A model generated the notes under the pieces. It had not been told where the DNA came from, ran no database searches, and saw only the letters and a list, made by a program, of their open reading frames with translations. DNA of 64,000 nt from Candidatus Altiarchaeales archaeon (GTDB lineage: Archaea; Altiarchaeota; Altiarchaeia; IMC4; SCGC-AAA252-I15). Position 1 is the stretch's first letter. Every line of letters begins with the position of its first letter. A program made the translations under genes and the position numbers. Positions 48,854-56,974 of this stretch are shown one piece after another. The stretch is from the NCBI GenBank assembly GCA_014727915.1, contig WJMO01000006.1, positions 288,001 through 352,000 of the forward strand. Reading direction: 5' to 3'.

Positions 48854-49759
48854 TTAGTTAGACAACAATTTAAAAAGCTCCTCGGCGGAGTCAATCTCCG
48901 CCAGCTCGCCCGGAGAAAGCACCGACATCTCCCCTTTAAGCCTTCTCTCGCTTATGCAGACGGAGTAACCGCCGACTATGTCCGATATCTCGTCCAGGAC
49001 GGACAACTTGTCCTTTATCCTGCGCCAGTCGTTGCTGACCACGCTGAAGACCCGCTGGTCACTGCGGGCGACGATGTCGAAGGGGGCGTTGGTCAACTGG
49101 GTGTTGAACCCCATGTTCTCGAACTCATTGAATACGATCCGCTTCAAAGAGGTGATCTTGCCCTGGGAATCATCCCGTAGCTTGGACTTCTCATAGGTCA
49201 GTTTGAAGTCGGCACCGCGGATGTCGTCTCCAAGCATGTCAACAAGCTTGTCGAATATCTCCAGGCTCACCCTGCCCGACCGCTCATAGCGGTAGACGGA
49301 CTGCTTTGATACTCCAAGCTCCCTCGCGAACGAGTCCTGGGTGTATCCCATCATCTTCCGGAGGTCTGAAAGGTTTTCCCTGTCGACCCTAACGCAGTAG
49401 TTCCCACGCGTCGAATAAGCCCGGGGAGGTATGTTGCCTATTATCTCCTTCAGAGTGTTCAAGGTGGATACGAAGACCCCGTATCGGTCGTATACCACGC
49501 CGTCGTTCAGCAGAGAGGACTTCATCCTCTCGGAAACGACTATGGGCACGGCCTCAAGGAGCTCCGAAACCCTCTTAAGCTCCGAAACCGAGGGTCGGCT
49601 AAGGCCCTCAACGTTTGAGAGGACCTTGACCAGCAGGAGCATGTCCTTCCTCTTGGCTAGGACGTCGAAGCTGCTGCGGGATCCCCTGCAGTCGACTACT
49701 TCAAAACCCGAATTCGACAGGTTAGCCAGAACGGCATCAACAAGGCTGGACTTGTACAT
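48854..49759 (-). CDS. Archaeal Cro/C1-type HTH transcriptional regulator (COG1395-like)
   Basis: SFDV.A, VKVL.NV, HTH A.ELGVSK.SVYRYE, APFD. Confidence 0.88.
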   Translation of the reverse strand: MYKSSLVDAVLANLSNSGFEVVDCRGSRSSFDVLAKRKDMLLLVKVLSNVEGLSRPSVSELKRVSELLEAVPIVVSERMKSSLLNDGVVYDRYGVFVSTLNTLKEIIGNIPPRAYSTRGNYCVRVDRENLSDLRKMMGYTQDSFARELGVSKQSVYRYERSGRVSLEIFDKLVDMLGDDIRGADFKLTYEKSKLRDDSQGKITSLKRIVFNEFENMGFNTQLTNAPFDIVARSDQRVFSVVSNDWRRIKDKLSVLDEISDIVGGYSVCISERRLKGEMSVLSPGELAEIDSAEELFKLLSN

Positions 49760-51216: not shown

Positions 51217-51511
51217 GGTGGCTGTCGGTAGCCCGCCTTCTGTCAGCCTGTCTTGCGGCCTAATGCTCGCCTTGGCTGCCCGGGCATTCTTCTGAGCGCA
51301 GAATTTACTGCTTGCACCAGATCGTGGGACGGCATCCGTTTCACACAGTGCATGGACAACTCCCAATCAAGTTCATCGTTGGCGCCCAAACACGTCTACG
51401 TCTCTGCTATGCCATCCGGGCGCTCACGCACCCATCACAACAATGTCTGGTGGGCGGAACTTGCCTCAAAAACCCCTGAAAGGGACTTCGTAGGCCCGGC
51501 CAACAGCCACC
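51217..51511 (-). ncRNA. rnpB: RNase P RNA (archaeal)
   Basis: P1 GGUGGCUGUUGG/CCGACAGCCACC; CR-I GAGGCAAGUUCCGCCC; AGCAGAGAC and UGAAACGG; GGUGCAAG; CR-V ACAGAAGGCGGGCUA. Confidence 0.93.
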
Positions 51512-51557
51512 AAAAAAAGAAAAGGGAAACAAACAAATAAAAATGAAGAAAAAAGGG

Positions 51558-51730
51558 TGGAGGTGCAATTTTTCACGGTTTAAAGCAGTGTCTGGGCCAG
51601 TGCCACGGCTACTAAGAGGGCTAGCACCGCCACGATCTGAGCTGCTTCAGCCACCGTCGAAGCTCCCATGTTAAAGGTTAGGTCCGCTGGGGGACTAACC
51701 ACGGTCGTCGCAGTCACAGCCATCACCTCC
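51558..51730 (-). ncRNA. Unassigned structured RNA (~173 nt), overlapping a 45-47-codon hydrophobic ORF
   Basis: Upstream TTTATAT box (51751-51757), end pairing GGAGGUG/CACCUCC, nested stems, downstream U-tract. Confidence 0.55.
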
Positions 51731-51841
51731 AGTAAGGACTTAGGTGACCCATATAAAGAAGATAACGCCAATATAGGGCTAAAATAGGGCTAGAAGTGTG
51801 TGACCGAACGGTTAGTCTGGGTCGGTTGAAATAAAATGGCC

Positions 51842-51904
51842 GGAAGGTGGTGTAATTGGATGTATCCAATTGAGCATTTGACTTGTCGCCAAAGAGGCGC
51901 AGAG

Positions 51905-51905
<1 letters not shown>
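51842..51905 (-). other. 23S pre-rRNA processing stem, 3' arm (pairs with 54748-54810)
   Basis: Long imperfect inverted repeat ggaaggtggtgta..ggatgtat..gagcatttg / caaatgctc..atacatcc..tacaccaccttcc. Confidence 0.85.
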
Positions 51906-54745
<2,840 letters not shown>

Positions 54746-54936
54746 AAGACTCTACGTCTCTTTTTGGCGAGCCAAATGCTCTATATAATACATCCTATAC
54801 ACCACCTTCCAAAAGAAGAAAGCCAAAAAGAAAATTGGCTAACTTAGCATGAAAGGTTTCTCCACACGCCCGCCTGCGCAGGCATGCTTCAAGCGAAAAA
54901 ATTTTCCACCAAAATGAATTGATGAACGTGATTGTT

Positions 54937-55190: not shown

Positions 55191-55341
55191 TGGACTCGTC
55201 GGGATTTGAACCCGAGGCCTCCCGCGAACTCGGAACCTTTTACGGACACGGAATATTATTTTCCGTGAACGCTTTTACGGCCTGTAGGCCGGAAAAGGGT
55301 TCTTGCAAGGCGGACGATCTACCGGACTGATCTACGAGCCC
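55191..55341 (-). tRNA. tRNA-Ala(UGC) with 77-nt intron (55227-55303) at 37/38
   Basis: Cloverleaf with G3-U70; canonical BHB (CUUG/CGAG helix with two 3-nt bulges). Confidence 0.95.
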
Positions 55342-55483
55342 CTGAATAAAGTTTCTTGGATTCACCCCAACGGGTTCCATGAATTTTTTGTGTTCAAGTC
55401 TTTTGCTGGAAGAATTTTAGCCCCTGTGCGCGGAAGGCAAATATTCCGCATTGTAAAAGAAGCAAACACATGTTGGTTTGCTT

Positions 55484-56974
55484 GGAGGTGATCCAGCCGC
55501 AGATTCCCCTACGGCTACCTTGTTACGACTTCACCCCCCTCGCGAACCCGAGATTCGACACACCCGAAAATCGAGTATGCCTCACCTCCAATCCACTCAG
55601 TTGGTGTGACGGGCGGTGTGTGCAAGGAACAGGGACATATTCACCGCTTTATGGTAAAAAGCGATTACTAGGGATTTCACCTTCATGAGGGTGAGTTTCA
55701 ACCCTCAATCCGTACTGGGACATGGTTTAGGGGATTAGCTCCGCCTTTCGGTGTTGCAACCCATTGTCCATGCCATTGTATGCCGCGTGTAGCCCAGACG
55801 ATTCGGAGCATACAGACCTACCGTCGCCCGCGCCTTCCTCACACTCATCGCATGCAGTCCCCCTATAGTGCCCCACAAGTCTCCTCGTGGGTTGCAAATA
55901 GGGGTACGGGTCTCGCTCGTTAACGGACTTAACCGTACGCCTCACGGTACGAGCTGACGACGGCCATGCACTACCTCTCGGCTCGTTCGGCAAGACCTTT
56001 AGCCTGGCCTTCATCCTGCCGTCGCGTCTGGTAAGTTTCCCGGCGTTGTATCCAATTGAACCGCAGCATCCACCCCTTGTGGTGTTCCCCCGCCAATTCC
56101 TTTAAGTTTCAGCCTTGCGACCGTACTCCCCAGGTGGTGGGTTTAACGGTTTCCCTTCAGCACTCCCCGAACACGAGGTTCAGGGAACACTAAACCCACA
56201 TCGTTTACGGCTAGGACTACCAGGGTATCTAATCCTGTTCGCTCCCCTAGCTCTCGTACCTCATCGTCAGGCCCGTTCCAGAGTGGCGCCTTCGCTACCG
56301 GTGGTCCTCCAGGGATTATAGCATTTCACCGCTACCCCCAGAATACCCCACTCCTGCCCCGGCCTCAAGCCCAGTAGTATTTTCTGCAAGCCCTACGGTT
56401 AAGCCGCAGGATTTCACAGAAAACTTGCTGAACCGACTACGCACGCTCTAAACCCAGTAAACGCGATCACCACTTGAGCTGCTGGTGTTACCGCGGAGGC
56501 TGGCACCAGTCTTACCCAGCCCTTATTCCCAGAGCTATTTACACTCTGTAAAAGCACACGTTGTACGTGCGCACTTGGGGTCCCCTCGTCACGCTTGCGC
56601 GCATTGCGAAGGTTTCGCGACTGCTGCGCTCCGTAGAGCCTGGACCTTTGTCTCAGTGTCCATCTCCCGGCTCCCACTCTCATGGCCGGTACAGATCGTA
56701 GCCACGGTAGGCCATTACCCTACCGTCAAACTAATCCGCCGCAGACTCATCCTGAGGCGATGGACCGGATACAGGTCTTCTCCTTTGAGCGGCGGACATT
56801 CCAGTGCTCGCCGCCTATGGGGGATTGTCCTCAGTTTCCCGAGGTTATACCCCTCCCCAGGGCAGATTGTCCACGTGTTACTGAGCTGGTTGCCCGGACC
56901 TTAACCGTGTCCGAAACGTGCATGTCTTAATCAAACCCCAATAGCAGTGACCTCGAGCAGGATCAACTCGAGTT
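55484..56974 (-). rRNA. rrs: 16S rRNA
   Basis: 3' GGAUCACCUCC, GUAACAAGGUAGCCGU, AUUAGAUACCC, AAAGGAAUUGGCGGGGG; 5' GUUGAUCCUGC; flanking processing stem. Confidence 0.98.

Follow-up and report, generated by a model that had tools for sequence, protein, structure and literature searches.

The interval between the 23S rRNA and RNase P RNA genes of an archaeon assigned to Candidatus Altiarchaeales very probably corresponds to the mRNA of a conserved small membrane protein of 45 residues, the expression of which is predicted. The interval was studied within a stretch of 64,000 nucleotides, hereafter the window, and, as judged by comparison with related genomes, the conservation at this locus is at the level of the protein. 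We regard the locus as an unannotated member of an uncharacterized small-protein family, in which a small open reading frame (sORF) would encode a single-pass membrane peptide, a kind of product that is already known. The initial annotation of this DNA had proposed an unassigned structured RNA with acceptor-like ends, which found no backing in the analyses below: neither a fold signal nor structural conservation nor a model match was obtained.

Organization of the locus

The window is archaeal, and in its rRNA-bearing region the genes are ordered 16S, tRNA, and 23S on the minus strand (table 1). The flanks named in the initial annotation, 23S upstream and RNase P RNA downstream, were recovered as matches to RF02540 and RF00373, and the literal features that it had listed on the minus strand, namely a TATA box, a 9-nt Shine–Dalgarno (SD) sequence, a GUG-initiated open reading frame (ORF), a 3′ CACCUCC, and a U-tract, were all present. 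The CACCTCC is located at 51565-51559 (minus) and is followed by A-C-C-C. The 16S 3′ end of the window genome reads GGATCACCTCC, so the 9-nt complementarity between the SD and the anti-SD is real. A TATA-bearing box was also found upstream of the homologs in G001, which belongs to the same genus (g1) as the window genome (G000), and in G020, G018, and G013 of genus g4, and GGAGGTG precedes the start codon in the window, G001, and G020. Across the window genome, SD-like 5-mers precede 167 of 1110 long ORFs (15%, against a background of 8.3%, by a crude start-codon rule), indicating that SD-led initiation is not the rule there. A scan for bacterial-type promoters and terminators returned nothing relevant, its model being bacterial and wrong for an archaeon. 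Oligo-T terminators are established in archaea, and on this basis the run at 51549..51554 is read as a terminator.

Table 1. Features of the locus and of related genes (window coordinates unless a genome or locus is named)
Feature	Position	Strand	Basis or remark
16S rRNA	55483-56973	minus	
23S rRNA, neighbor	51896..54758	minus	RF02540, 2583.7 bits
Direct-repeat motif, candidate operator	51767..51789	minus	CCCTATTTT-AG-CCCTATATT, two ~11-nt units; best nhmmer site in the genome
TATA box TTTATAT	51757-51751	minus	read directly; inside the conserved box TTCTTT(T)TATGGG
Shine–Dalgarno GGAGGTGAT	51730-51722	minus	perfect 9-nt complement of the 16S 3′ end
Peptide CDS, 45 codons, GTG start at 51717, TAA 51582-51580	51580..51717	minus	translation
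3′-UTR CACCTCCA, complementary to 5′-end UGGAGGUG	51558..51565	minus	MFE and centroid folds; probably incidental
Oligo-T TTTTTT, likely archaeal terminator of the peptide mRNA	51554-51549	minus	putative function
RNase P RNA, neighbor	51220..51508	minus	RF00373, 80.5 bits, E 2.9e-22
Cys-rich genes	G001 L004 996-1381 (-); L008 1633-1824 (+); L019/L021; G000:C12:171392-171565 (-)		

The GTG at 51717 is positioned 8 nt after the GGAGG core, comparable with the ATG of G001 located 9 nt after GGAGGTGATGG, and the spacing that it gives between the initial Met and the conserved motif equals that of most relatives. An alternative in-frame ATG at 51723 overlaps the SD, and its G001 counterpart is out of frame; on these sequence grounds GTG 51717 is preferred and ATG 51723 appears the less favored start. 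The original choice of ORF and start codon (GUG 51717, 45 codons) is retained, its product being a conserved protein in relatives.

Some observations concern the surrounding stable-RNA genes. The tRNA in the 16S-23S spacer, 55191-55341 (-), was not reported by ARAGORN and spans 151 nt against a 71-position model, which implies an intron of ~80 nt. The RNase P RNA of the window scores just below the Rfam gathering score of 84 and its alignment exhibits a shortened region and an insertion of ~32 nt near the 3′ end, whereas the G001 copy reaches 48.7 bits; default annotation would miss both copies. The 5S rRNA is encoded at G000:C5:71695-71810 (+), on another contig and unlinked from the 16S-tRNA-23S operon.

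Coding signal in the 45-residue frame

By DNA search across 41 relatives, only G001 matched besides the window's own genome, with 76% identity over 98 nt that include promoter and 5′ end; in G025, a T-rich stretch of 35 nt also matched and was dismissed as spurious. G001 harbors an ORF of 47 aa at the equivalent place, directly after the 23S gene and before the RNase P RNA gene, and the two peptides share 59% identity (26/44 residues). Over 45 aligned codons, the differences between the window and G001 amounted to 15, 8, and 31 at codon positions 1, 2, and 3, respectively, and 16 codons differed synonymously. The Nei–Gojobori estimates for this pair were pS 0.74 (saturated) and pN 0.26, a ratio of 0.35, whereas the other two frames of the same alignment gave pN/pS of 1.30 (5 stops) and 2.58 (2 stops). 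In more distant pairs the ratio was 0.5-0.85, weaker than in typical genes, a range to be expected when a peptide is short and evolves fast and its synonymous sites are saturated. On two tests for protein coding, purifying selection was found to be confined to one frame, with substitutions concentrated at third positions, and the relatives were found to keep an open frame of conserved length together with translation signals.

A lineage-specific family of small, predicted membrane peptides

An alignment of 14 sequences (43-51 aa) revealed a common plan comprising M-x4-V-V/I-x-P-x-A-D, a linker of variable, mostly acidic sequence, Q-I/V-L, and a terminal hydrophobic run that often closes with A-R-G-x-I. 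The G016 peptide is the sole member of the alignment without the N-terminal VVxPxAD motif, and the hydrophobic segment is kept in all 14 members and is long enough to span the membrane once. In 17-residue windows across residues 21 to 45 of the window peptide, the Kyte–Doolittle mean was 2.2-2.7, peaking at 2.68 at the C-terminus. The window peptide contains neither K nor R and would escape detection after digestion with trypsin. From this hydropathy, the C-terminal helix of ~20 residues should anchor the peptide in the membrane.

A single-protein search of 49 genomes of the order returned eight matches at E<=1, from which G000, G001, G020, G018, and G004 were kept; those in G024, G036, and G011 (E 0.05-0.56) were rejected as frames of 81-200 aa without the hydrophobic tail and were not returned by later profile searches. 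Protein and profile searches together detected homologs in five g4 genomes (G020, G018, G004, G013, and G016). The profile search of 61 Altiarchaeota genomes placed the family in seven, comprising both genomes of g1 and all five of g4, counts that are not independent, as the few members of the family are related to one another. In the other 29 genera of the phylum the same search did not find it, which, with many of the 61 genomes incomplete, is to be read as not found rather than as absent.

A search of proteomes for the peptide, already suggested with the initial annotation, was carried out with HMMER on 1.84 billion representative proteins and gave 11 matches at E<=1e-3, four of them at E<=1e-10. 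Ten of the 11 are proteins of 43-51 aa with the architecture of the family; the remaining one, a weak match of 516 aa, was disregarded. The window's own peptide was absent from the database matches. Relatives carry the source name Candidatus Altiarchaeota archaeon. A word-indexed search of 5.8 billion proteins returned four proteins, all from loci already known, and on metagenome contigs a narrower peptide alignment produced 206 pattern matches, of which none was confirmed. Nothing significant was found for the peptide in Pfam, NCBIfam, PADLOC, PHROGs, or PDB sequences, the best score in the ESM Atlas was 0.84, below the lead threshold, and a cluster look-up of eight peptides gave "hypothetical protein" as the sole name. 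A literature search on the family, which covered its sources in part, returned no paper. Among the genomes searched, the family appears to be lineage specific and confined to two Altiarchaeota genera.

RNA structure at the locus

The helices that had motivated a structured-RNA reading were evaluated both thermodynamically and comparatively. The 181-nt transcript yielded a minimum free energy (MFE) of -60.4 kcal/mol; dinucleotide shuffles gave -57.3 +/- 4.2, which corresponds to z -0.73, and an equally stable fold was reached by 47 of 200. The 41 MFE pairs inside the ORF were transferred to four relatives by means of a codon alignment guided by the proteins, and those kept numbered 24/41 in G001, 25/41 in G020, 18/41 in G018, and 21/37 in G004 (4 gapped), compared with 11-23 pairs (11-21 for G001) in controls in which the 3′ partner was slid by 1-3 columns. 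These counts fall inside the range of the slid controls or exceed it only slightly. In G001, the closest relative, 17 of the 41 pairs are broken, and 5 of the 24 kept are kept by a two-sided change. Given the z-score and the loss of pairs in relatives, the structure does not exceed chance in stability and lacks conservation, and the helices initially described arise as a side effect of the GC-rich coding sequence. In several members, the codons of the VVxPxAD motif (GUN GUN ... GCN GAC) form a GUC/GAC hairpin, the extension of which is peculiar to the window.

Another reading is a new noncoding RNA of housekeeping or dual function between the 23S and RNase P RNA genes, with structure rather than the ORF under selection; a housekeeping RNA had been among the options of the initial annotation. 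The position between two stable-RNA genes in both species of g1, the presence of its own promoter and terminator, and the long stem and several hairpins that can be drawn would suit such an RNA. Against these stand the fold statistics and broken pairs given above, the substitutions that track codon positions, the g4 homologs that are not adjacent to rRNA or RNase P RNA genes, and the Rfam covariance models, none of which matches 51555-51760 even at E<=10. This Rfam scan had also been proposed at the outset. The noncoding reading is very improbable, and the codon pattern argues that it is largely refuted. The earlier exclusion of 5S and SRP RNA holds, both having been found on other contigs.

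The same annotation had offered a tRNA mimic or tmRNA-like RNA, a reading in favor of which are the 7-bp acceptor-like stem GGAGGUG/CACCUCC, the subsequent A-C-C tail, and the ORF inside. ARAGORN reported no tRNA or tmRNA at the peptide locus, and no tRNA or tmRNA model matched at E<=10. SmpB, for which a search had likewise been advised, was not found, with no match to PF01668 in the window genome (90.6% complete) and positive controls in ten bacterial genomes. Furthermore, the ends are not conserved in G001, and the 5′ strand of the supposed acceptor is the SD of a conserved gene. The probability left to a tRNA mimic is close to nil, and we consider that reading refuted for practical purposes.

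A probable cysteine-rich partner protein and a shared upstream repeat

In three of the seven genomes (G001, G020, and G016), the stop codon of the peptide gene is abutted or overlapped by a gene encoding a Cys-rich protein of ~63-70 aa, present in two tandem copies in G001. Its invariant residues are C12, D13, C32, G39, C51, C55, R57, and W58, within the family signature ECDRxY...C...LGF...C...C.RW. The distribution of the Cys-rich family is that of the peptide (g1 2/2, g4 5/5), plus one weak match in g26 bearing an internal stop. The protein also occurs in a longer stand-alone form of ~80-113 aa beside a histidine-kinase gene, including in the window genome (C12:171392-171565). Beside the window copy of the peptide gene there is no Cys-rich gene, and the single one that this genome has, the 113-aa form, is on another contig. 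When aligned sequences of the Cys-rich protein were searched against metagenome contigs, one locus (L031) was detected, which has the form located next to a histidine kinase and is not accompanied by a peptide gene. The Cys-rich protein has no Pfam or NCBIfam model, and searches of PADLOC, PHROGs, and PDB sequences gave nothing significant, the best PDB-sequence match being 6kbr_C (E 0.017). Its predicted model (pLDDT 67.2) comprises three helices, and Foldseek returned no match to it in the PDB.

Upstream of the TATA box in the peptide genes, at a distance of about 20 nt, we detected a tandem repeat of ~11 nt, which in the window extends over 51789-51767 (C3:339789-339767). A profile of this motif found only three sites at E<1 in the 1.8-Mb genome (nhmmer). 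In 41.9 kb from 13 loci, all ten matches at E<2 were located upstream of a gene of one of the two families, peptide or Cys-rich, in the correct orientation, nine at 62-109 nt from the start and one at 251 nt, and five of the ten were in loci left out of profile building. Further sites were observed at G000:C3:247743-247765 (-), at G000:C3:529624-529646 (-), and upstream of G000:C12:171713 (-). Repeats resembling CCCTATTTT precede the genes of the peptide and the Cys-rich protein, an ORF of 36 aa, and a zinc-ribbon-like ORF of ~60 aa that is followed by a small membrane protein. These genes may form a small regulon of small-protein genes under the repeat motif.

The shared distribution, the translational coupling in three of seven genomes, and the shared repeat motif together point to a co-regulated pair. 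The peptide most likely acts together with this small, presumably cytoplasmic four-cysteine protein, and the pairing suggests that the membrane peptide would anchor or modulate it.

Genomic neighborhoods

Apart from the Cys-rich gene, the neighbors of the peptide gene vary among genomes, including rRNA and RNase P RNA genes in g1, TrkH-family genes in G020 and G018, cyclophilin and TATA-binding protein (TBP) genes in G013, and an SdpI-family gene in G016. In the window, a gene for an HTH protein is located nearby (48854-49759). The TrkH-family genes are located upstream of the peptide gene (L008 1-1299 (+) in G020 and L009 3-1397 (+) in G018), and archaellin genes follow the cassette in G020. 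The gene of the SdpI/YfhL-family membrane protein of G016 (L019 1699-2337 (+)) is divergent and lies ~80 nt from the peptide start, an arrangement seen in one of the seven genomes. In Bacillus, SdpI is the immunity and signal protein for a peptide toxin.

Pairing of the transcript ends and the possibility of a toxin

A further option of the initial annotation was a type I toxin-like mRNA silenced by pairing of its 5′ and 3′ ends. Its first half, an mRNA for a hydrophobic peptide, agrees with our results; the silencing does not, as the pairing occurs in a single copy and is not statistically striking. The reading as a whole would make the locus a type I toxin-like mRNA, or a toxin/antidote cassette with a membrane-toxic peptide, in which the 3′ CACCUCCA pairs with the SD in the full-length transcript in a fold-back of the hok/AapA type, translation would need 3′ processing or the loss of an antisense RNA, and the following Cys-rich protein would be the antidote where present. 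The small, hydrophobic peptide is as a type I toxin would have it, and the perfect 8-bp pairing is found in both the MFE and the centroid folds of the window copy, in which some translational occlusion may result from the pairing in the centroid fold. CACCTCC occurs at 0.17 per kb per strand in the genome, a frequency that gives it a chance of only ~0.4% in the 30-nt tail, a figure calculated post hoc. The varied genomic contexts of the cassette resemble those of mobile toxin modules, and a plus-strand A/T-rich box near 51535-51545 could drive a candidate antisense transcript.

The conserved SD-sequestering fold that should accompany such a toxin was not found. When the 3′ region of the window copy was shuffled, 48 of 500 sequences equaled its duplex (-15.5 kcal/mol), and in six relatives the best 5′-3′ duplex, equaled by 84-430 of 500 shuffles, was no counterpart of the window pairing. 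The mRNA continues into the next gene in G001, G020, and G016, and no PADLOC or PHROGs model matched. Type I toxins are not known to have a conserved soluble N-terminal motif preceding a C-terminal hydrophobic segment, which is the arrangement of this family, and both the antisense RNA and the toxicity are hypothetical. A toxin is an unlikely explanation of the locus. A more elaborate scheme, which we offer as a long shot, would combine these elements into a mobile, co-regulated two-gene module of the two Altiarchaeota genera, with a membrane-acting peptide and a protein serving as its antidote or receptor. A single direct-repeat operator would control both genes, and the Cys-rich protein might itself bind that operator; in the window copy the adjacent partner would have been lost, and an anti-SD mimic in the 3′-UTR would pair with the SD in a hok-like manner, holding translation down. 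We know of no hok-like fold-back control in archaea, and a literature search that reached its sources in part gave no archaeal case.

Proposed mechanism and implications

In the preferred reading, that of a small membrane protein, the locus would be transcribed as a short monocistronic mRNA of ~175-180 nt encoding the 45-residue product. Transcription would start ~24-27 nt downstream of the TATA box, near 51730 and the GGAGG, which would place the SD at the extreme 5′ end of the mRNA, and it would probably end at the oligo-T after 51555. The 9-nt SD would direct the 30S subunit to the start codon, GUG 51717. The peptide would insert in the membrane by its C-terminal helix, with the N-terminal VVxPxAD motif as the putative interacting part, and would work with the Cys-rich protein under the common direct-repeat operator.

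These results remove a false lead, as the locus holds no new archaeal tRNA mimic or housekeeping RNA, and add one unannotated small-protein gene to an Altiarchaeota genome. The case also illustrates that a GC-rich sORF near stable-RNA genes can mimic a structured RNA. In addition, a small lineage-specific family of 43-51-aa peptides, for which there is no Pfam or NCBIfam model, is defined and tied to an uncharacterized four-cysteine protein by gene order, distribution, and upstream motif. The peptide/Cys-rich pair offers a concrete test case in an uncultivated phylum in which there are few functional leads for small proteins.

Comparison with known systems

The hok/Sok and AapA1/IsoA1 systems comprise type I toxin mRNAs with a 5′-3′ fold-back. 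The locus shares with them a small hydrophobic peptide and, in the window copy only, an SD able to pair with the mRNA 3′ end; in contrast to them, the pairing at the peptide locus is not conserved, an antisense RNA is hypothetical for it, the C-terminal hydrophobic segment is preceded by a soluble motif that is conserved, the gene of a partner protein follows in three of seven genomes, and the host is an archaeon. Compared with tmRNA, the paired 5′ and 3′ ends followed by ACC and the short ORF inside are similar features, whereas the T-arm, a model match, and an SmpB for the peptide locus are lacking, and the ORF is equipped with an ordinary SD and start codon and shows conservation at the protein level.

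KdpF-type proteins are small hydrophobic accessory subunits of cation transporters, a resemblance that we take as a lead only. Like them, the peptide is predicted to form a single helix, and its gene is located directly downstream of a TrkH-family gene in G020 and G018. Unlike what would be expected of such a subunit, this adjacency is limited to two of the seven genomes, the neighbors in the window and G001 being the rRNA and RNase P RNA genes.

Short mRNAs first taken for sRNAs, with sORFs encoding small proteins, are reported as the "small protein RNAs" of Methanosarcina mazei (bioRxiv 10.1101/2025.10.28.685009). The present family differs in its own VVxPxAD motif and its Cys-rich partner gene, and kinship in sequence with the M. 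mazei proteins would be hypothetical. It resembles them in the predicted transcript of <200 nt with its own promoter and terminator, in the product of ~45 aa, and in belonging to a kind of gene that gene callers easily miss.
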